Shown: positions 3,195-40,487 of the stretch, piece after piece
Layout: each line of letters starts with the position of its first letter
How positions within the stretch are numbered: position 1 is the first letter of the stretch
Assembly (NCBI GenBank): GCA_014896485.1
Contig: JADBKH010000007.1
Location: forward strand, 83,963-147,962
Source: Bacillota bacterium
GTDB taxonomy: Bacteria > Bacillota > Bacilli > Bu12
Length of the DNA: 64,000 bases
Direction of reading: 5' to 3'
Program-made: the position numbers and the translations under genes
The notes under the pieces: generated by a model
Seen by the model: the letters and a program-made list of their open reading frames with translations, nothing else
What the model was told of the DNA's origin: nothing
Databases searched by the model: none

Positions 3195-3395
3195 GGCGAC
3201 CCACTTGGGTCGCCACTATTGACGTACCACACGTGGGGATAGCGCTCCGCCGATCGGCGACAGTTTTACTGCGCTGTGCAGTAAACCCAACGGTACGTTT
3301 CGGCAGACGAACCGTTTCGGCAAGCGTACCCTTCCCCGGCTTCCTAGATGCCTTTCTCCCCCGGGTACCGTAACCGCTTGCAACCTCTATCCCAA
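3195..3395 (-). promoter_or_regulatory. Lysine riboswitch (L-box) leader of lysA
   Basis: The minus-strand leader reads AGAGGTTGCAAGC...GGGGGAGAAAGGCATC...GGGGAAGGGTACGCTTGCCGAAACG...ACTGTCGCCGATCGGCGGAGCGCTATCCCC. This reproduces the L-box blocks AGAGGUGC, GGAGAAAG, GCCGAAG and CUGUC...GGAG.GCUAUC. The hairpin GGCGACCCAAGTGGGTCGCC just before the RBS is probably a sequestering or terminator stem. Confidence 0.6.
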
Positions 3396-3443
3396 AGCGC
3401 TCTTGATCCACTGCTTCATTTGTGATGAACAACATATACCATA

Positions 3444-16439: not shown

Positions 16440-17273
16440 CTACCTTCGCCCTGCGGCACTCTCCGTTTCACTCAATGCGTCATTGAGTTGCAAATAATCG
16501 GCGACCATTGCGATAAACTCAGAATTGGTTGGTTTATCTCGCTCTGCATCGACTGTATACCCAAACATTTTACGAATGGTTTCGGCATTGCCACGTCCCC
16601 AAGCGACTTCGATAGCATGCCGAATCGCACGCTCGACACGACTGGGGGTTGTTTCAAACTGTGCCGCGATGGTCGGGTATAAAACTTTTGTGACAGCCCC
16701 CAATACTTCTCTATCCTTATAGACCATTAAGATGGCTTCCCGCAAGTATTGATACCCTTTGATATGCGCAGGTACTCCCAGATCGTGGATGAGCGTAGAA
16801 ATATCACTTTCTAGTCGGGCCCGCTGGTTGACGGAAGTCGGAGCCGGAGTCACGGCCAATGCACGCTTTTCCCGATTGAGTGCTCCTGGGGATGCAATAC
16901 AAATCTCGCGCAATCGCTGCGCCAACACTTCCAAAGGGAAAGGCTTCATAATGTAATATTGTGCGCCGAGCTCAACGGCGCGTTGGGTAATCTGTTCTTG
17001 TCCAAATGCAGAAAGCATGATGACATGGGGAACAGGATTTAATTGCATCGATTGGAAGCGTTCCAAAACGCCAATACCGTCTAAATGAGGCATGATGATA
17101 TCCAGCAGCAAAACGTCGCATGCAGCGTGGGAGAGCAAGGCAATGGCCTGTTCGCCGTCACTAGCCGTTCCAACAATTTCAAAATCTCCTTGTTGCTGCA
17201 AAAATGCGGCCAGTTGATCTGTGAACTCGCGGTTGTCATCTGCGACAATCACCCGAACTTTCTCGTTGGACAC
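16440..17273 (-). CDS. spo0A: Sporulation master regulator Spo0A
   Basis: Receiver domain VADDN...[12 protein letters not shown] plus the Spo0A C-terminal domain [10 protein letters not shown]...EFIAMVAD. Confidence 0.95.
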
Positions 17274-17383
17274 GTTTGCTCCTCCTTCGATCCACTTCCA
17301 TAAGACCAGTTAAGGGATCAACCTGGATGATGAGGGGATCGACAGTTGCTTGAAAACTGGTCCAATCGTCAAACGCCAAGGTG

Positions 17384-17415
17384 CCAAAAAGAGGCAGGCC
17401 GTTAGGCCGCCTTCT
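17384..17415 (-). terminator. Probable intrinsic terminator at the spoIVB 3' end
   Basis: Imperfect GC hairpin AGGCGGCC-TAAC-GGCCTGCCT followed by CTTTTTGG on the minus strand. The stop codon lies within the stem. Confidence 0.4.
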
Positions 17416-18565
17416 CTTCTTCACGCACTTGTTCGTACATCCACTGTGCTAAAACGCCATACCCTCGTGTCGGATCATTGACAAAGACATGGGTAACTGC
17501 TCCGGCCAGACGCCCATCCTGTAAGATGGGGGAACCGCTCATACCTTGTACGATACCGCCACTGGTATGCAGAAGTTTTGGATCTGTCACACGCAGTGCC
17601 AAGCCTTTGGGTGCTGGCGTGCGTTGATTCATCACGCTGATGATCTCTACCTGAAAATCTTCAATCTTCTCTCCTCGAACGACGGTGCGCAAGGTTGCAG
17701 GACCTGGATGTACCTGTGCCGGTGTAGCGATTGGAACCATGCGATGCCAATCCAAAGAAGTATCATCCGTGATTTTCCCGAAAATGCCAAACTCGGTATT
17801 CCCTGTGACAGTTCCAATTTGTGGACTTTTTGCAAGGAATTCGCCTTGTTTTTCACCGGGTTGGCCACGTTCTCCTTTTTCAAGAGCAACGATTTTAGCT
17901 GCAACGATTTTTCCACTTCCTATCGGGACAGGTTGTCCAGTTTGGGGATCGGAGACCTGGTGGCCCAACGCTGCAAATCGGTGAGTACTCGGATCGATGA
18001 AGGTAAGTGTTCCAACGCCGACAGCCGCATCCTTGAGCCACAGACCGAGTTGATAATGTTGTCCATTGGCTTCTTTGACCGGTGCGATCTGCACGTCCAA
18101 TTTCCGATCGCCGCGCTCCACTCGAAGATGCAAAGGCTTATTGGCAACCCCAGCCTGTTGCACAAGCTTCTCGAGGGAGACAGGATCGATGGCTTTACCA
18201 TCTCTGGCGAAAAGGAGATCGCCGACATGGATTCCAGCGGCTTCCGCTGGAGAGTATGTCCTTTCAGCAGTATGGATGGGATGAAAGCCTACTACCAGCA
18301 AGCCAGGTGTTTTCAGCGTCACCCCGATCGATTCCCCACTGACAATCACATTTGCCGAAGCTGCCATGGCGCGTGCGGCCGTCAGGGAGATCGCTGGCCG
18401 ACCTGCTGTCGTGACTGATTTGCTTGCAGGAGAAGCGCTCCCCATCTCTGAGGTACTCTCTGCCACCCCCATCGTCCACAGAACTGCCAAAAGGATCAAC
18501 GCGCATTTCCGTATCGCTTTTCCCTTCGAATTGCCCTCTCCTAAACCGTTTCTGCCGCTGTGCAC
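17402..18565 (-). CDS. spoIVB: SpoIVB signalling serine peptidase (S55)
   Basis: A PDZ-like region (IHVGDLLFARDG) precedes the catalytic region GGIVQGMSGSPI. It sits between recN and spo0A as in Bacilli and Clostridia. Confidence 0.85.
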   Translation of the reverse strand: MHSGRNGLGEGNSKGKAIRKCALILLAVLWTMGVAESTSEMGSASPASKSVTTAGRPAISLTAARAMAASANVIVSGESIGVTLKTPGLLVVGFHPIHTAERTYSPAEAAGIHVGDLLFARDGKAIDPVSLEKLVQQAGVANKPLHLRVERGDRKLDVQIAPVKEANGQHYQLGLWLKDAAVGVGTLTFIDPSTHRFAALGHQVSDPQTGQPVPIGSGKIVAAKIVALEKGERGQPGEKQGEFLAKSPQIGTVTGNTEFGIFGKITDDTSLDWHRMVPIATPAQVHPGPATLRTVVRGEKIEDFQVEIISVMNQRTPAPKGLALRVTDPKLLHTSGGIVQGMSGSPILQDGRLAGAVTHVFVNDPTRGYGVLAQWMYEQVREEEKAA

Positions 18566-18661
18566 CTTCTCACTCCCGAACGGCTACCCATCCACCCGTC
18601 CGTTAACGTCTCCGAGGAGGGAACGGTGCATCCGGTCAAGAGGTTCCACGCCAGGGGCAGG

Positions 18662-20377
18662 TTACCCGTTTCGCAATCCCGCTGCCAGGGTCAACATCTC
18701 TTGGGCGCTTTGCCGGGTCAGCTGGGTCACTTTGGCTCCTCCCAGCATGCGCGCCAGCTCTTCTACGCGTTGACTTCCTTCCAGATGTATAGCCTTTGTC
18801 TGCGTGCGGCCGCCCGACTGGATCTTGGCAACGCTGATGTGCAGGTTTCCCATTGCAGCGATTTGCGGTAAGTGCGTAACGCACAATACCTGCTGATGGC
18901 GAGCGAGGCTGGCCAGCTTTTCGGCTAGGGCTTGTCCACTTCGTCCGGCGACTCCAGTATCCACTTCGTCAAATACCAAGGTATCCACCTCGCCCATCGT
19001 ATGGATCGTCACCTTTAAGGCGAGGATCAATCGAGACAGCTCACCCCCAGAAGCGACCCGCTCCAAAGGACGAGGGGGTTCTCCAGCATTGGCTGCCAAC
19101 AGGAATCGGATGGTCTCGCTCCCTGATGGTGATACAATCTGGTGGTCGATTTCCAGGCCCCGCTTGATAGGTTCGAAAGCTACCGTGACCCTGCTGTTCG
19201 ACATATGTAGCGCCTGCAGGTGCTTCTCTACCTCTGCAGAAAAAAGCGGCGCCGCTTGATGACGAAGCTGCGAAAGAACAGTGTCTGCCTGACGGTAGTC
19301 GTCAAGAAGATGGGCACACCTCTTACGCAACGCGATTGCCTCATCCTCCAGGTGTTGCAAGCGCTCTCCCTCTTCACGCCTTGCTTGGGCATAAGCGAGA
19401 ATATCGGGTATGGTAGCCCCATACTTGTGCTTGAGTCGCTCAATGGAGGCCAGCCGCTCTTCTACTTCGGCCAATCGCGATGGATCGGACGAGATTTGAT
19501 CCGCATGCTGGCGAAGACTGTGCGCAAGTTCTTCGACACGCATGGCCAGCTCGTTGGCCTCTTGTGCCCACGAAGCGGCCTCGGGATCGAAGGAGCCAAT
19601 CGTTGATAATGCCGCGGCAGCAGCAGCCAGCTCATCGTAAGCAGTTGGTAACCCATTTTCACCCTCATACAGGTGGACAAAAGCTTCGCGAAAGCGTAAC
19701 AGCCGTTCCTGAACGTGACGTAACGCTTCCCGCTCCTCTAACAGCGCCTCATCTTCTCCAGGTTGTGGTGCCACATGTTCGATCTCTGCGCATTCGTAGG
19801 CGATTAAATCCAGTTCACGTTCGCGTTGCCTGGACTGCTCCTCCAATTTCTGTAGCTCCGCCTGCGTCTCTGCGATCGCTTCGTAGTATTTCCGAACACG
19901 TTGTCGTTCTTGTGCGGCCTCATCGCCGATAAACGCGTCTAAGAAAGCGACGTGTTCTACAGGATCCAAGAGCCTTTGCTGCTGATGTTGGCCGCAAAAA
20001 TCGACGAGGTGGCGCTGTAATTGCCGCAAAGTCGCCAATCCCACTGGGATGCCATTGGCCCGTGCGGTACTACGGCCGGATGAGGTCACTTCGCGATGCA
20101 ACACCAAACCGCCATCTTCTTCGACGGCGATTCCGAGTGCCTCAGCTTGTTGACGCTGGGTGTCATTTAAACGGAAAGCAGCATCAACCGTCGCTTTCTC
20201 CGCTTGCTCTCGCACCCATTCCATTCCCCCCCGTTCACCCAATGCCAGCATCAGGGCATCGACAATCATCGATTTTCCTGCGCCGGTTTCTCCTGTGATG
20301 ACGTTGAGGCCTAGATCGAACTCCAACGAGAGCTCTTCGATAAGGGCAAGGTTACGCACGTGCAGTTCCTCAACCAC
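18662..20377 (-). CDS. recN: DNA repair protein RecN
   Basis: Walker A GETGAGKS, long coiled coil, C-terminal signature and Walker B GELSRL...LVFDEVD. Confidence 0.9.
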   Translation of the reverse strand: MVEELHVRNLALIEELSLEFDLGLNVITGETGAGKSMIVDALMLALGERGGMEWVREQAEKATVDAAFRLNDTQRQQAEALGIAVEEDGGLVLHREVTSSGRSTARANGIPVGLATLRQLQRHLVDFCGQHQQQRLLDPVEHVAFLDAFIGDEAAQERQRVRKYYEAIAETQAELQKLEEQSRQRERELDLIAYECAEIEHVAPQPGEDEALLEEREALRHVQERLLRFREAFVHLYEGENGLPTAYDELAAAAAALSTIGSFDPEAASWAQEANELAMRVEELAHSLRQHADQISSDPSRLAEVEERLASIERLKHKYGATIPDILAYAQARREEGERLQHLEDEAIALRKRCAHLLDDYRQADTVLSQLRHQAAPLFSAEVEKHLQALHMSNSRVTVAFEPIKRGLEIDHQIVSPSGSETIRFLLAANAGEPPRPLERVASGGELSRLILALKVTIHTMGEVDTLVFDEVDTGVAGRSGQALAEKLASLARHQQVLCVTHLPQIAAMGNLHISVAKIQSGGRTQTKAIHLEGSQRVEELARMLGGAKVTQLTRQSAQEMLTLAAGLRNG

Positions 20378-20397
20378 GCCCTAACCTCCCGTTTCTT

Positions 20398-20865
20398 TCA
20401 AGAAGTGGACGCATAGTGTTCAAGCCTTTGGCAGACCATTTCCGCCCCTTTGGAATCCCTGCAGACCAGAAGGCAGGTGTCATCCCCACAAATGGTTCCC
20501 AGTACCTCTTCCCAGCCGATGGCATCCAAAATGGATCCAACCGCGTGCGCATTGCCCGGAAGAGTGTGTAATACAACCAGGTTTTGTGCAGCAGCAACTC
20601 CGCGGAAGATCTCAGGCAACAGATGGCTCAAACGCGTTCCCGGTTCGAGCGTTCCTTCTTGGGGAAGTGCATAGACACTTCGACCGTCGTTGGTCAGCCG
20701 TTTCACCAAGCCAAGTTCATGGATGTCACGAGAGATCGTGGCTTGTGCGACCTCATAACCACGGCTGCGCAGTGCAGCGGCAAGCTCGGCCTGAGTCTCA
20801 ATCGGTGTCGAAGCTACCAGGTCGCGAATTGCCTTGAGTCGTTCTGCTTTACTGGGCTGACGCAT
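20398..20865 (-). CDS. argR: Arginine repressor
   Basis: RLKAIRDLV...TQAELAAAL...ATISRDIHELGLVK plus a C-terminal oligomerisation domain. The ATG overlaps the nadK TGA by 1 nt. Confidence 0.85.
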   Translation of the reverse strand: MRQPSKAERLKAIRDLVASTPIETQAELAAALRSRGYEVAQATISRDIHELGLVKRLTNDGRSVYALPQEGTLEPGTRLSHLLPEIFRGVAAAQNLVVLHTLPGNAHAVGSILDAIGWEEVLGTICGDDTCLLVCRDSKGAEMVCQRLEHYASTS

Positions 20866-21749
20866 CACTCTTCCTGCTCCTGCTCGATCCAGTCGCGACG
20901 ATGCTCTTGAAGCTTGTGGCGCAGGACATCGTAAAACGATCGCTGAAAGATACGGATGAGCCGTGTCGAAAAGGGCGCACGGGTCACTCGCACCTCATCG
21001 CCGACTTGCAGGTGAATACCGAGCTGGCCGTCGACGGTTAAACCGATGTCGCGATGGGTAGCTTGCACACGAACCCGCACCTCTTCCTGATCCGAGAGCA
21101 CGACTGAACGCGCATCGAGGGTATGCGGACAAATTGGGGTGACGATAATGCCATTGACAGTGGGACTGACAACCGGGCCTCCGGCTGAAAGGGAGTAGGC
21201 AGTCGATCCGGTGGGACTGGAAAGGATGACCCCGTCTGCTGGATAGACGGCGAGCAAGGTATCGTTTACGTAGACGGAAAGTGTTATCAGCCGTGAAAAG
21301 GAGCCCTTGGTGATACCGATGTCGTTGAGTGCAACGACCGTCTCCACGCGGTTCCCATTGCGCCAAACCTCGGCGTAGAGCATCGAACGCTCTTCAATGC
21401 GAAAGGCATTGGCATCGATTTGAGAAAGGGCTTTGGAGACATCGTCGGGTTCGACTTCCGTCAAGAAGCCCATATGGCCAAAGTTGATGCCCAAAATGGG
21501 GACCCCCTTGGGCGCCCACGTCCGCGCCACACTCAATAAAGTGCCATCCCCTCCCAGCGAAATGGCCCAATCCAATGGCGTTTCCGCCGTTAAGGGCTGC
21601 AAAGGGGGCTGTACGTCCGCAAATGCAGCAGCCGATCCATAAACGACCGCTCCGTGGGAACGCAATTGAGAAACGACATTGCCCACCACTTCACCAATCT
21701 TTGGAAAGGCGGTGTGGGCGACGATTCCGACACGCCCCATCACCGTCAT
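20865..21749 (-). CDS. nadK: NAD kinase
   Basis: GGDGTLL and NFGHMGFL motifs. The start codon is ambiguous among ATG, GTG and ATG within 9 nt. Confidence 0.85.
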   Translation of the reverse strand: MTVMGRVGIVAHTAFPKIGEVVGNVVSQLRSHGAVVYGSAAAFADVQPPLQPLTAETPLDWAISLGGDGTLLSVARTWAPKGVPILGINFGHMGFLTEVEPDDVSKALSQIDANAFRIEERSMLYAEVWRNGNRVETVVALNDIGITKGSFSRLITLSVYVNDTLLAVYPADGVILSSPTGSTAYSLSAGGPVVSPTVNGIIVTPICPHTLDARSVVLSDQEEVRVRVQATHRDIGLTVDGQLGIHLQVGDEVRVTRAPFSTRLIRIFQRSFYDVLRHKLQEHRRDWIEQEQEE

Positions 21750-22252
21750 CGTCCTCCTTGCCACAGCAGATAGAACAACAGCGCGCCTCCTGCCATCCAA
21801 GCCAGATTATGAGAGATACGTCGCAAGCGCGTACTCCAGGGCAGCCAAAGGCGCAAAGAAACATCCCGTATCTTACCGTGTTCTTCATCGAGATACAGCA
21901 ACCCATATTGTGGATAGACCAGCTTATAAGGCAACATCACGTCCCGGATGAAACCACCTGCTCGGCCCGAAGCATCGTGGACACGTTTGACGGCGTACAA
22001 CCTTCCCTGCCTTTGGGCGATGTAGTCGACGATGAGATGGCTGTCATAATGGTGATCATCGACTTCTACAGCAACTGGGATCTCTCGACGTCCGTCTACG
22101 ACCTCGAATCCTGCACGCCGCAAAAGAAGGGCACCCGCATCGCGTGGACCTGGCTTCCCCCGGTGAGAACGCTCTTGAAAATGCCGAATTAGGGTAAAAG
22201 CAGCCCATGCAATGATCAAAACGGCCAGAAACAGATCCTGCCGATGGACCAT
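21746..22252 (-). CDS. Hypothetical N-terminally membrane-anchored protein (possible nuclease-like fold)
   Basis: One TM helix (LFLAVLIIAWAAFTLI) then a roughly 130-aa domain (FEVVDGRREIPVAVEVDDHHYDSHLIVDYIAQRQGRLYAVKRV). ATGA overlap with nadK and 1 nt gap after tlyA. Confidence 0.45.
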   Translation of the reverse strand: MVHRQDLFLAVLIIAWAAFTLIRHFQERSHRGKPGPRDAGALLLRRAGFEVVDGRREIPVAVEVDDHHYDSHLIVDYIAQRQGRLYAVKRVHDASGRAGGFIRDVMLPYKLVYPQYGLLYLDEEHGKIRDVSLRLWLPWSTRLRRISHNLAWMAGGALLFYLLWQGGR

Positions 22253-22253
22253 C

Positions 22254-23102
22254 TCACTCTACGCTCCGCTTTGACGGCGGTATCAGCGTACTGTGTGCAT
22301 CTCCTACAAGCTTTTCAATGGTTTCCTGCGAAACATGGCAAGTGGCAGGTTTACTGATGCCGCGCCGCGCGTAGAGGAAAAACTCCATGTTTCCGTCGCT
22401 TCCCAGGATCGGCGAAAATGTGATCCCTTCCACCTCAAAACCGCTGATACATGCCCTCTCGCATGCATGGCGCAAAACCGCACAATGAACCTGCGTATTC
22501 CGGACGATGCCGCCTTTTTCCACCTGAGAACGTCCTGCTTCAAACTGTGGTTTCACCAGTGTGAGCAACCAAGCGTTCTCGGTTAAAAGGTTTGCCAGCA
22601 CAGGCAGCAGCAAATCGATCGAGATAAACGATACGTCCATCACCGCGGCATCCGGACGAAACGGAAGCTGTGCCGCCGACAAGTACCGGGCGTTTATCCG
22701 CTCTAAGACAAAGACACGAGGATCGTTGCGCAAACGCCAGTGGAGCTGGCCATGGCCCACATCGAGGGCGATGACGCGAGCGGCCCCATTTTGCAGCAAG
22801 CAATCCGTAAATCCGCCTGTCGATGCTCCAACATCCAGAATCGATAACCCCGAAACAGGAGGATGGAAAACAGTGAGTGCGTGCTCCAGTTTTTCGCCTC
22901 CACGGCCGACATAACGGCGCGGTAGGCCACGAACTTCAAGGGGAACATCTGCTGTGACGCGATCACCTGGTTTCGGGTTGGGTTGTCCAGGGCAGAAAAT
23001 CTGTCCTGCTAACAACATGCGCTTTGCTTCTTCGCGAGAAGGGGCGATCCCTCGCTCGACGAGCAGCGCATCGAGACGTACCTTGGGCTGCCGTACGTTC
23101 AA
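22254..23102 (-). CDS. tlyA: TlyA-family rRNA 2'-O-methyltransferase (S4 + FtsJ domains)
   Basis: RLDALLVERGIAPSREEAKRMLLAGQI is the S4 domain. LDVGASTGGFTDCLL is the SAM-binding motif. TTG start overlaps the dxs TGA. Confidence 0.8.
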   Translation of the reverse strand: MNVRQPKVRLDALLVERGIAPSREEAKRMLLAGQIFCPGQPNPKPGDRVTADVPLEVRGLPRRYVGRGGEKLEHALTVFHPPVSGLSILDVGASTGGFTDCLLQNGAARVIALDVGHGQLHWRLRNDPRVFVLERINARYLSAAQLPFRPDAAVMDVSFISIDLLLPVLANLLTENAWLLTLVKPQFEAGRSQVEKGGIVRNTQVHCAVLRHACERACISGFEVEGITFSPILGSDGNMEFFLYARRGISKPATCHVSQETIEKLVGDAHSTLIPPSKRSVE

Positions 23103-25036
23103 GAAGAGATCACCCGCAGCTGCGGACGTTCGGCCTTCTTGCGTGCCAAAAGTTGCTGTGCTGTCTCGACCAGGTGCCCTGCGGTCAAACCAACATGTTC
23201 CAAAAGTTCTCCACGCTGCCCTTGCGGCACAAAGGCGTCGTCCAATCCGATACGGACGACTGTTGCTGGCTCTCCCCCATCGTTGAGCGCTTCTAAGACA
23301 GCACTCCCGAATCCTCCCATGCGGACGTGTTCTTCCGCCGTGACGATGGGGATGCCTTGCTTGGCCAAGGAGGTGAGGGTCGATTGATCAATAGGCTTGA
23401 TAAAACGCGCATTGTATACAGATGCGTCGATCCCGCCCTTTGCAAGCCGTGTTGCTGCTTCCACGGCAACACGGTGCATCGGTCCGAGCGCGACAAAAGC
23501 GAGTTGAGGCTTTTCGCAAGCAACAGTCTGCTGCATGTGCCCGATGGGTAGGGCGCGTAGCTCTTGATCGAGCGGCACCCCTTCTCCTACACCTCGTGGG
23601 TAACGGATGGCCACAGGTCCTTCTAGGCGGAGAGCGGTATAAAGCATATGTTGAAGCTCGTTTTCATCTTTGGGCATCATCAGCGTCAGGTTGGGGATGT
23701 GCCGCAGATAGGCGATATCGAAGATGCCTTGATGGCTATCCCCATCTTGTCCAACCAAGCCAGCACGATCAATTGCGAAGAGGACCGGAAGATTTTGACG
23801 ACAGACGTCATGGACGATCTCATCATAGGCACGCTGCAGAAAAGTGGAGTAGACGGCAAAAACCGGTCGTTTGCCTTCTGCTGCCAATGCTGCGGCCATC
23901 GTGGTCGCATGTTCTTCTGCAATGCCGACATCAAAAGTGCGATTGGGAAACACCTCTGCAAAACGGTTGAGTTGGGTACCGTCTGGCATGGCTGCTGTAA
24001 TCGCGACGATGCGTGGATCTTCTTGGGCCAAGCGAATCAAGGTCTGTGCGAAGACCTCACTGTAACTCTTGCGCTGGGCCCGTTGTTTGGGCTCTCCTGT
24101 TGCAATGACAAAGGGTGCAGGAGAGTGAAAGGCATTTGGATCTTGCTCTGCCGGTGCATACCCCTTCCCCTTTTGCGTCAGGACATGGATGACCACAGGC
24201 CCTTCCAATTCTTTGGCATGGGAGAGTACGTTCTCCAGCTCAGCAGTACGGTGCCCATTGATCGGTCCCAGATAGGTAAATCCTAGCTCCTCGAACCACA
24301 TGCCCGGGACGATCCATTGTTTGACACCCTCTTTCAGCCGTTCGGCACTACGACTGAGAGATTTTCCTGCCGGAAAATGTTCGAGTACGCTTTTCGCCTC
24401 ATTTTTGAGTCGCAAGTAACTGCGGTCTGTACGCATACGCGCCAGTAGAACCGAGACAGCGCCCACATTTGGTGCGATGGACCACTCGTTGTCGTTGAGT
24501 ACCACGATCAGCCTGCGTCTCGATTCCCCGATATTGTTCAACGCTTCCAACGTCAATCCCGAAGTTAACGCACCATCTCCTACAATGGCGACGACGTGAT
24601 AATGACCGCCGGATAAATCTCGTGCAACGGCTATTCCATAAGCTGCAGATAAACCTGTTCCTGCATGACCCGTATCAAAGCGATCATGCACACTTTCTTC
24701 CCGACGTGGAAAACCGGAGAGTCCACCGTATTGGCGCAATCGCTCGAATCCATTGCGCCGACCTGTAATGATTTTATGGGTGTAAGCTTGATGGCCGGTA
24801 TCCCAGACAATGCGATCGACCGGACTGTTGAAGACACGGTGGATGGCCAGCGTCAGTTCCACGACACCGAGACTGGGTGCCAGGTGTCCGCCGTTTTGGC
24901 TCACTTTTTCGATGATGAACCGGCGGATTTCTTCTGCAAGTTCTTCCAGCTGTGCTTCGTCCAGTCGCTTGAGATCCGCAGGTGAATTGATCGATTCGAG
25001 CAGCAAAATTTCCGCCTCGCTCTCATTCTCCTCCAC
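23099..25036 (-). CDS. dxs: 1-deoxy-D-xylulose-5-phosphate synthase
   Basis: TPP motif GDGALTSG and the transketolase-like fold along the full 645 aa. Confidence 0.95.
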   Translation of the reverse strand: MEENESEAEILLLESINSPADLKRLDEAQLEELAEEIRRFIIEKVSQNGGHLAPSLGVVELTLAIHRVFNSPVDRIVWDTGHQAYTHKIITGRRNGFERLRQYGGLSGFPRREESVHDRFDTGHAGTGLSAAYGIAVARDLSGGHYHVVAIVGDGALTSGLTLEALNNIGESRRRLIVVLNDNEWSIAPNVGAVSVLLARMRTDRSYLRLKNEAKSVLEHFPAGKSLSRSAERLKEGVKQWIVPGMWFEELGFTYLGPINGHRTAELENVLSHAKELEGPVVIHVLTQKGKGYAPAEQDPNAFHSPAPFVIATGEPKQRAQRKSYSEVFAQTLIRLAQEDPRIVAITAAMPDGTQLNRFAEVFPNRTFDVGIAEEHATTMAAALAAEGKRPVFAVYSTFLQRAYDEIVHDVCRQNLPVLFAIDRAGLVGQDGDSHQGIFDIAYLRHIPNLTLMMPKDENELQHMLYTALRLEGPVAIRYPRGVGEGVPLDQELRALPIGHMQQTVACEKPQLAFVALGPMHRVAVEAATRLAKGGIDASVYNARFIKPIDQSTLTSLAKQGIPIVTAEEHVRMGGFGSAVLEALNDGGEPATVVRIGLDDAFVPQGQRGELLEHVGLTAGHLVETAQQLLARKKAERPQLRVISS

Positions 25037-25091
25037 ATCATACTACAGGATGGCGATCATGCATTGCGTTTCGTGGACTTACGCAATGATT

Positions 25092-25997
25092 TCAGTAAGA
25101 ACGTGCTTGTGCAAAAGCGACCAATGCCTTCAGGGCGGTCGGCTCAGGCAACGTTTTTAGGTGCGCGCAAGCATTTTCGTACAACCGTCGATAGGTTTGC
25201 TGGCTCTTCTCTAGCCCGACGATGGCAGGATATGTCGCTTTGCCAAGTGCGGCATCGCGTCCCGCGGCTTTACCCAGTTGTTTGGTTTCTCCAATTTCAT
25301 CGAGCACGTCGTCTTGAATTTGAAAAGCCAAACCGATTTCCTCACCAAAGCGTTGAAGCGCATCTTGCTGTGCTGGTGATGCACCACCAATCAACCCGCC
25401 AATGCGGACAGATGCGGCGATCAAGGCCGCAGTCTTGTTCCGATGAATATAATGTACTTCTTCGATACCGATATATCTTTTCGCTGTTGCTTCTATGTCA
25501 GCCTCTTGTCCACCGACCATGCCTTCTGCACCTGCCGCTTTTGCAAGCATGTGTACCGCTTGTGCTGCGATAGTCGAAGGAAGTGTGTAGCCCTCTATGG
25601 TTGTGGTCATCAGGAAGAAGGCAGCCGTCAGCAATGCGTCCCCTGCCAAAAGAGCCGTCGCTTCGCCAAAGACTTTGTGATTGCTGGGACGGCCTCGACG
25701 CAGATCGTCATTGTCCATCGCGGGGAGATCATCGTGGATGAGCGAGTATGTATGGAGCACTTCGATAGCACACGCAGCCGGCAGGGTTTGGCGCGGGTCG
25801 CCACCACATGCTTCACAGGCAGCAAAAAGCAATGCAGGCCGAAAGCGCTTCCCACCTGCATAGAGCGTATAGGCCATGGCCTCCCGCAGGTGCTGAGGTG
25901 TATCCTCCAACGTCTCTATCCAGTGGTGCAGGGCCGGATCGAGACGTTGCGTGCTTTCCCGTAGATAGGCCTCACCGCGTTGGATTTCAGGTAGCAT
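25092..25997 (-). CDS. ispA: Farnesyl/geranylgeranyl diphosphate synthase
   Basis: First Asp-rich motif LIHDDLPAMDNDDLRRG and second motif FQIQDDVLD. Confidence 0.9.
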   Translation of the reverse strand: MLPEIQRGEAYLRESTQRLDPALHHWIETLEDTPQHLREAMAYTLYAGGKRFRPALLFAACEACGGDPRQTLPAACAIEVLHTYSLIHDDLPAMDNDDLRRGRPSNHKVFGEATALLAGDALLTAAFFLMTTTIEGYTLPSTIAAQAVHMLAKAAGAEGMVGGQEADIEATAKRYIGIEEVHYIHRNKTAALIAASVRIGGLIGGASPAQQDALQRFGEEIGLAFQIQDDVLDEIGETKQLGKAAGRDAALGKATYPAIVGLEKSQQTYRRLYENACAHLKTLPEPTALKALVAFAQARSY

Positions 25998-40182: not shown

Positions 40183-40375
40183 AAAACAGAAAGAGGCGCA
40201 TTCAAACAGATGCGCCTCTGTGTGGTACCAGAGAGTTGAAGCCCCGTGGGTGGCCGCTTTGCGACGCTCTCCAGAGTGGCCTCGCATTTTGGTCCTTTTG
40301 CCTGAGAGATTGTCTGCGCTTCTTACTCCTTCGGCGCCGCACGCAGGATAATTGCGGTCTCTCCCAAAATGGTCA
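40183..40375 (-). promoter_or_regulatory. Tandem glycine riboswitch with terminator-type expression platform
   Basis: Minus strand: GGGAGAGACCGCAAT...GCGCCGAAGGAGTAAG...CTCTCAGGCAAAAGGACC is aptamer 1. CTCTGGAGAGCGTCGCAAAGCGGCCACC...GGGGCTTCAACTCTCTGG is aptamer 2. A hairpin AGAGGCGCATCTGTTTGAATGCGCCTCT plus TTTCTGTTTT follows. The blocks GGAGAG, CCGAAGG and CTC.GG..AAAGGAC match the glycine aptamer consensus. Confidence 0.7.
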
Positions 40376-40487
40376 TCAGCCTATTTTATTGTAAGCGAGT
40401 TCTGCTGCCCGTGCACGCCATATTCAGCGTTCCTCTGGGCATGGTAAGGAGCAGAGAAAACAATGCGTGCAAGGGGAGATATACGCC

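Follow-up and report, generated by a model that had tools for sequence, protein, structure and literature searches.

A membrane-tethered PD-(D/E)xK-fold protein with a degenerate catalytic site is encoded between tlyA and nadK in a Bacillota genome

Within a 64,000-nucleotide stretch of a Bacillota bacterium contig (JADBKH010000007.1, assembly GCA_014896485.1, positions 83,963 to 147,962 of the forward strand; hereafter the window), we analyzed an open reading frame (ORF) of 168 amino acids, here called gene X, that lies between tlyA and nadK. An earlier note on this DNA, made from the sequence alone, had placed the ORF 1 nt after tlyA and in an ATGA overlap with nadK, and both the ORF list and a direct reading of the junctions bear this out. 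Gene X runs from an ATG start to a TGA stop; the tlyA stop ends at 22254 and the ATG of gene X begins at 22252, while its TGA shares the ATGA at 21746-21749 with the nadK ATG at 21749. An AAGGAGG Shine-Dalgarno box lies 3 nt 5' of that nadK ATG. The program-made ORF list starts nadK farther out, at TTG 21800; because of the Shine-Dalgarno box, and because a short gap between X and nadK is also found in relatives, ATG 21749 is the plausible start. On the upstream side, tlyA overlaps dxs by 4 nt and directly precedes gene X. The GC content of gene X at codon positions 1, 2, and 3 (0.67/0.41/0.52) follows the same pattern as in six flanking genes, and its product is identical to the hypothetical protein IMW91_02560 of a "Firmicutes bacterium" metagenome-assembled genome (MAG). 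Neither promoter-like nor terminator-like matches rose above shuffled expectation in the 16-28 kb region of the window. Because 161 homologous representatives, a confident fold, kept synteny, and coding-type GC are all found (see below), gene X is a real gene, co-translated in a dxs-tlyA-X-nadK-argR-recN operon.

Table 1. Features of the gene X region, of the remainder of the window, and of loci fetched from relatives. Positions are those of the window unless a locus handle (L number) is given, in which case they refer to that fetched locus. TM, transmembrane; pLDDT, predicted local distance difference test.
Feature	Position	Strand	Evidence or remark
Gene X, 168-aa membrane-tethered PD-(D/E)xK-fold protein, degenerate-site branch	21746..22252	-	ORF, homologs, AlphaFold
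N-terminal TM helix, residues 4-29 (hydrophobic core 7-25)	22166..22243	-	Kyte-Doolittle mean 2.06-2.69, AlphaFold helix
Cytoplasmic minimal PD-(D/E)xK-fold domain, residues ~36-135	21848..22147	-
C-terminal hydrophobic helix, residues 140-167 (core 150-164)	21752..21835	-	AlphaFold pLDDT 85-97
AAGGAGG Shine-Dalgarno box for nadK	21753..21759	-	within last codons of gene X, junction GGCAAGGAGGACGATGACG
tlyA, S4 + FtsJ-like rRNA 2'-O-methyltransferase	22254..23102	-	Pfam FtsJ 9e-38, S4 1.4e-6
nadK, NAD kinase	20865..21749	-	Pfam NAD_kinase_C 2e-36, NAD_kinase 1.5e-16; translationally coupled downstream of X
argR, arginine repressor	20398..20868	-	Pfam Arg_repressor, Arg_repressor_C; overlaps nadK stop codon
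recN, last conserved member of tlyA-X-nadK-argR-recN	18662..20377	-	ORF + translation
ispA-dxs interval in the window, 55-bp spacer	25037-25091
Lysine riboswitch	3232-3397	-	Rfam, 80.7 bits
Glycine riboswitch	40280-40376	-	Rfam, 73.2 bits
Degenerate-branch look-up locus, Bacilli-like metagenomic block without nadK	L131 5001-5917
Gene of ~190-210 aa between ispA and dxs in relatives	L001 1683-2279; L002 3517-4125; L007 1599-2180; L008 1630-2253; L009 1124-1729; L131 1592-2197		no Pfam match
PF06962 rRNA-methylase-family gene between nadK and argR	L001 6396-6992 (Bacillota LX-D); L004 6395-7069 (Heliobacterium)
Two canonical family copies on one Bradymonadales contig, JBFFMO010000006.1 (Microvenator sp.)	L030 2125-2550; L112 7059-7367		~3 kb apart

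On its own, the gene X protein gave no usable match in Pfam, NCBIfam, PHROGs, PADLOC, or the PDB sequences; hits to MtaC and to a xylosidase (E 0.025-0.5) were dismissed as noise. A word-indexed search of 5.8 billion proteins with the single sequence returned only the identical sequence, the same kind of search with a profile of its closer relatives (the degenerate branch described below) returned 4 proteins only, and genome contigs searched with the single protein yielded no relatives. The empty results in Pfam, NCBIfam, and the PDB sequences, and a first word-indexed search that found nothing except the query itself, are what speaks for a chance open frame or an annotation artefact between tlyA and nadK. 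That explanation, to which we give virtually no credence, is refuted by the exhaustive search as well as by the fold, synteny, and codon-position GC: phmmer against 1.84 billion cluster representatives recovered 161 proteins at E<=1e-3, 12 of them at E<=1e-10, with E-values down to 2e-15 over residues 1-150 of the query. Nearly all of these proteins are 150-185 amino acids long and align end to end. The frame is thus conserved among 161 cluster representatives, in contrast to the lack of conservation in relatives that the earlier note had considered as a sign of an artefact. Identity to the best relatives fetched is 35-56% for Dxs, TlyA, NadK, ArgR, and RecN and 25-37% for X. Sequence comparison over window positions 16440-25997 indicates that the source genome is deep-branching, and it is this, rather than a spurious ORF, that leaves X so isolated.

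A structural model of the gene X protein was built by AlphaFold with a 60-sequence family alignment (A1) and reached a mean pLDDT of 91.2, while prediction without an alignment gave a poor model (pLDDT 57.5) that was discarded. Between the two hydrophobic helices at its ends, the model contains a helix (residues 39-46), five strands within residues 50-90, a second helix (99-112), and two further strands (117-122 and 127-131), and it includes the core alpha-beta-beta-beta-alpha-beta restriction-endonuclease-like fold that defines the PD-(D/E)xK superfamily. Foldseek places Cas4/RecB-type domains at the top of the matches to this model, and the weak matches given by single relatives fall only in PD-(D/E)xK families (Cas4, UPF0102, PDDEXK_1, NERD, and Hjc). 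The PD-(D/E)xK fold of the gene X protein is therefore secure, and the structure prediction that had been proposed as a check upholds the earlier guess of a PD-(D/E)xK or NERD-type fold, both through the confident model and through the confinement of weak matches to this superfamily.

The soluble domain comprises ~100 amino acids and is smaller than the roughly 130-residue domain first described, since a C-terminal helix lies beyond it. The N-terminal TM helix had been recognized correctly, but it is not the only hydrophobic helix: the AlphaFold model, the Kyte-Doolittle profile, and the alignment all identify a C-terminal one that had been overlooked. The core of this helix, LAWMAGGALLFYLLW, has a Kyte-Doolittle mean of 1.68 over 15 residues and aligns with a second, clearer TM helix in most relatives, a C-terminal hydrophobic segment being present in 186 of the 262 relatives collected. 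We regard it as a probable second membrane anchor. Across the family, the mean number of Lys and Arg residues is 0.6 before the first TM helix versus 5.4 in the 15 residues after it, and 2.7 before the second TM helix versus 0.9 after it. According to the positive-inside rule, this asymmetry indicates a cytoplasmic domain that is tethered to the membrane by one end or by both.

Alignment of the collected members separates the family into two branches. A complete nuclease signature, E…D…ExK…QxxxY, is found in 171 of the 262 members (the canonical branch), and an alignment of 25 canonical sequences (A3) shows E41 (in the "G-E" of helix a1), D80, E93-V-K95, G97, R109-R-Q-L-L-E-Y115, and D128 to be invariant. 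The canonical D, ExK, and QxxxY series aligns residue by residue with Cas4 SSO0001, and we take it to be the RecB/Cas4-type motif set, in which the Glu belongs to helix a1, the Asp to strand b2, the Glu-x-Lys to strand b3, and the QxxxY to helix a2. The remaining 83 members, which include the gene X protein and all of its best matches, lack the a1 Glu as well as the Glu and Lys of ExK, and usually the Gln (the degenerate branch). The two branches align by hhalign over 172 columns, both membrane helices included, with a probability of 100% and E 6e-39. Over 71 sequences of the degenerate branch, G48 and D76 never vary, and conservation is 90% or higher at L44, R103, and G117. Position 89 varies within the branch among K, R, A, I, V, M, F, and Q. 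Named members of this branch belong to the class Bacilli (Calditerricola and Hazenella). The gene X protein is homologous to the family over its full length, with the N-terminal TM helix, G48, D76, R103, G117, and the C-terminal hydrophobic helix all present.

Within the gene X protein, R37-D38 replaces the G-E of helix a1, K89-R90-V91 stands in place of ExK in strand b3, and R103-D-V-M-L-P-Y109 stands in place of RRQLLEY, such that the Gln is lost and the Tyr is kept. Four of the five canonical catalytic positions (a1 Glu, b3 Glu, b3 Lys, and helix Gln) are consequently missing, and D76 is all that remains of the superfamily's catalytic signature, namely an Asp at the end of strand b2 and (D/E)-x-K on strand b3, with a helix-a1 Glu in addition in many families. 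The motif reading of the "D…VKR" segment, in which the earlier note had seen a faint likeness to nuclease folds, is not supported. Furthermore, the loss is accompanied by a correlated change: an Arg or Lys followed by Gln occurs in the helix of 169 of 171 ExK members, whereas Asp or Glu occupies the same helix position in about 57 of about 70 non-ExK members, and in the degenerate branch the Glu of the b3 ExK has become Lys or Arg as the nearby helix Arg has become Asp. Because this branch keeps only the Asp and shows the correlated ExK Glu and helix Arg change, the gene X protein is probably a non-catalytic binding or scaffolding derivative.

We compared the gene X protein with known families of the superfamily, and the confident match to a well-known housekeeping family that the earlier note had allowed for did not appear, the curated thresholds for YraN, Cas4, NERD, and Hjc all being missed. 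The gene X protein has no match to UPF0102/YraN (PF02021, NF009152), and the best relative reaches a Pfam E of 9.7e-5 and an NF009152 score of 16.7 bits against a cut-off of 111. YraN (PDB 3fov) is a soluble single domain of about 110-130 amino acids without TM helices, whereas two hydrophobic helices conserved in the family flank the domain of the gene X protein; the QxxxY helix motif seen in canonical relatives is missing from YraN, and the gene X protein lacks any ExK. The YraN gene sits in a different conserved gene context (PMC3424549). The gene X protein has no match to Hjc (PF01870, NF040854) either, weak Pfam matches being limited to 3 of 60 relatives and family profile matches to the Hjc structure 1gef reaching E 0.03-0.05 only. 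Archaeal Hjc (1gef, 1ob8, and 2wcw) is soluble with an intact E-D-ExK site, whereas the gene X protein is membrane-anchored and its site is not intact. That gene X is a divergent housekeeping YraN/UPF0102 ortholog, or an Hjc-like resolvase, with acquired membrane anchors is quite improbable: scores lie far under the curated cut-offs with the gene X protein itself unmatched, the canonical QxxxY helix motif aligns with Cas4/RecB and not with YraN or Hjc, Foldseek ranks Cas4/RecB-type domains first, and both the TM-domain-TM architecture and the operon slot are specific to this family.

The gene X protein does not match Cas4 (PF01930, TIGR00372), weak Cas4 hidden Markov model matches occur in 6 to 9 relatives, and the highest score among relatives is 25.5 bits where the cut-off is 65, with a Pfam E no better than 0.0022. 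Cas4/RecB domains (SSO0001 4ic1, ACE1 9iab, AddAB, and RecB) have the D, ExK, QxxxY order in common with the canonical relatives. In contrast, the gene X protein has zero cysteines and hence no 4-Cys iron-sulfur cluster, is about half the size, is membrane-tethered, is neither CRISPR- nor helicase-associated, and has lost ExK and the Gln, with V105-M-L-P-Y109 at the QxxxY position of the RRQLLEY that is invariant in canonical relatives. For NERD (PF08378), the gene X protein gives no match at E<=1, and weak matches are confined to 3 of 60 relatives (best E 5.4e-5) and to none of the 71 degenerate-branch members. A working precedent for the architecture is S. aureus SmdA, in which an N-terminal TM helix carries a cytoplasmic NERD-like domain missing several canonical residues and which has a non-nuclease role in cell morphology that depends on membrane attachment (PMC9040797). 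SmdA, like the gene X protein, thus combines a TM helix with a cytoplasmic PD-(D/E)xK-superfamily domain from which residues are missing, but it has no sequence-level homology to X, is larger, is monocistronic, is found in Staphylococcaceae only, and has one TM helix. The gene X protein should be filed in a new, unnamed family of the PD-(D/E)xK superfamily, as a member of its degenerate branch. The novelty lies in architecture, synteny, and the existence of a degenerate branch; that canonical members have this fold is known already, since some of their database entries carry automatic labels such as "PD-(D/E)XK nuclease family protein" or "YraN family protein."

As a separate observation, the best PDB sequence match of the canonical A3 profile is the C-terminal domain of an Rhs family protein (7q97 residues 1296-1358, E 1.9e-4). 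A raD...V-EVK-G motif is common to both, a hint of shared ancestry with the nuclease domains of polymorphic toxins.

The gene order around X was followed in relatives in two ways. Protein look-ups yielded 12 loci from 11 family members, and tlyA-X-nadK or tlyA-X-argR followed by recN was found in 11 of the 12 loci (10 of the 11 proteins). The loci of canonical members lie in Bacillota LX-D, Thermoanaerobacterales (2 loci), Heliobacterium, Desulfotomaculales, and a Margulisiibacteriota MAG without argR, and those of degenerate members in Hazenella, two metagenomic contigs, a Calditerricola-type contig, and the Bacilli-like block L131; the sole exception is a Lujinxingiaceae (Myxococcota) MAG (L006). 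In L131, where nadK is absent, the order is tlyA-X-argR-recN-spoIVB-spo0A, and X takes a ~150-amino-acid single-TM form without the C-terminal helix that overlaps argR by 4 nt. The retention of X in this locus shows that the genes X accompanies are tlyA, argR, and recN, and not nadK in particular. A degenerate DNA pattern built by hand (EVK[TS]G...RRQLLEY...DME) was applied to species-representative genomes; it samples canonical members only and yielded at least 120 loci, so that its counts are lower bounds and not an unbiased census. In tblastn searches with the window proteins, among them RecN, which was located downstream of X in relatives, X proved to be flanked by same-strand TlyA and/or NadK in 53 of the 120 pattern loci listed, all in Bacillota and Atribacterota apart from one Fusobacteria MAG with NadK only. 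The remaining 67 lie in Myxococcota, Bacteroidota, Planctomycetota, Pseudomonadota, and others, and a common neighbor sought in these loci was found in no more than 8 of them. Across all loci, the distance from the X stop to the nadK start has a median of 10 nt (<=60 nt in 54 of 56) and that from the tlyA stop to the X start a median of 50 nt (<=150 nt in 49 of 52). These data show that the tlyA-X-nadK(-argR)-recN slot is kept in Clostridia-type Bacillota, Bacilli, Atribacterota, and one Margulisiibacteriota MAG.

Gene X was at first taken for an "additional" gene in a conserved block, which holds only relative to model organisms; relatives were checked for a gene between tlyA and its downstream neighbor as the earlier note had proposed, and homologs fill this slot in many lineages. 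The M. tuberculosis run has the same operon-like gene order and no gene between tlyA and ppnK, and compared with it, the run in Bacillota, Atribacterota, and Margulisiibacteriota has gained X as a fourth member. Although spoIVB and spo0A lie nearby, a sporulation-specific role was ruled out, as the slot is also filled in Atribacterota and Margulisiibacteriota. We also considered whether gene X is a mobile, defence, or toxin-type insertion in the conserved operon. The Rhs C-terminal domain as top PDB sequence match of the canonical profile and the patchy distribution of the family across phyla would fit an insertion, yet we judge this very improbable: gene X has no PADLOC or PHROG match, its tblastn against 50,697 phage and 72,556 plasmid records gave no match, identity in the retained slot is 25-37% and parallels the 35-56% of the housekeeping genes on either side, codon-position GC resembles that of the neighbors, and the overlapping junctions leave no adjacent immunity-like gene.

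Several features beside the slot were also recorded. In many relatives, a gene without a Pfam match sits between ispA and dxs as a second uncharacterised member of the block, and it is absent from the window, which has only a short spacer in this interval. Bacillota LX-D and Heliobacterium carry a PF06962 gene that is the second RNA methyltransferase of the operon in those relatives and is likewise absent from the window. The two canonical copies on the Microvenator sp. contig indicate that the family can duplicate outside the tlyA context. Within the window, only the lysine and glycine riboswitches exceed the Rfam gathering score.

We favor, with moderate confidence, an interpretation in which the gene X protein is a membrane-tethered nucleic-acid-binding or scaffolding pseudo-nuclease within an operon-resident nuclease-fold family. 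In this family of small inner-membrane proteins, the minimal PD-(D/E)xK domain is held at the cytoplasmic face of the membrane by the N-terminal TM helix and, in most members, by the C-terminal helix as well. Canonical members would presumably be nucleases that depend on Mg2+ and attack nucleic acid at the membrane. The derived branch, found in class Bacilli (Calditerricola and Hazenella) and related MAGs, retains the fold, both the membrane anchors and the place in the operon, and the Asp of motif II, while its catalytic residues have been replaced in a correlated way and its own set of conserved residues points to continued constraint. The gene X protein would then no longer cleave by the canonical two-acid/one-lysine metal mechanism and would more likely act as a nucleic-acid binder or scaffold, its amount tied to TlyA and NadK by translational coupling.

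A number of observations weigh against this interpretation. The degenerate branch retains the acidic residues D65, D76, D104, and D122 together with a basic residue at position 89, which makes an altered active site possible, and relocation of catalytic residues is documented in the PD-(D/E)xK superfamily (PMC3424549). The C-terminal hydrophobic stretch of the gene X protein is short (15 residues), such that a full second span is not certain. The family has no conserved neighbors outside Bacillota, Atribacterota, and Margulisiibacteriota, so synteny defines no universal partner, and a tlyA-ppnK(nadK)-recN run also occurs without X, for example in M. tuberculosis Rv1694-Rv1696 (PMC3072309). A search of the literature turned up neither a paper on this family nor biochemical or genetic data for any member. 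The main rival reading is that the gene X protein has remained active as a nuclease or phosphodiesterase, either with migrated residues (e.g., D65/D76/D104/D122 as metal ligands and K89 as a general base or in an electrostatic role) or with metal-independent chemistry as in the EndA tRNA-splicing endonucleases. We consider this possible, if on the unlikely side, since four of the five canonical catalytic positions are gone at once, position 89 varies within the branch unlike a catalytic residue, and no conserved His/Tyr/Lys triad is present.

Returning to the binding or scaffolding pseudo-nuclease, the gene order suggests that X may be linked to RecN-dependent repair or to TlyA/ribosome biology. 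In a stronger form of this idea, which is speculative and rather doubtful, X would be an unrecognised fourth partner of the ancient tlyA-nadK-recN cluster, a nuclease tethered to the cytoplasmic membrane face and working with RecN on broken or trapped DNA there, which a compensated charge swap in Bacilli-type lineages, this genome included, would have converted to a non-catalytic DNA-membrane tether or RecN/TlyA scaffold. If true, it would represent a bacterial pseudo-nuclease with a housekeeping role.

The import of these findings is modest in that the fold is a common one and the PD-(D/E)xK superfamily already has its known inactive derivatives. For annotation, the "hypothetical protein" label of gene X can be replaced. 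The tlyA-nadK-recN run is a widely conserved but unexplained bacterial gene association, and in several phyla the run includes a fourth gene, which encodes a small membrane-tethered nuclease-fold protein outside every curated family. Relatives with an intact site and relatives with a remodelled, probably inactive site occupy the same operon slot and constitute a natural experimental pair, one that allows asking what the protein does and how it is linked to an rRNA methyltransferase, an NAD kinase, and a double-strand-break repair protein.
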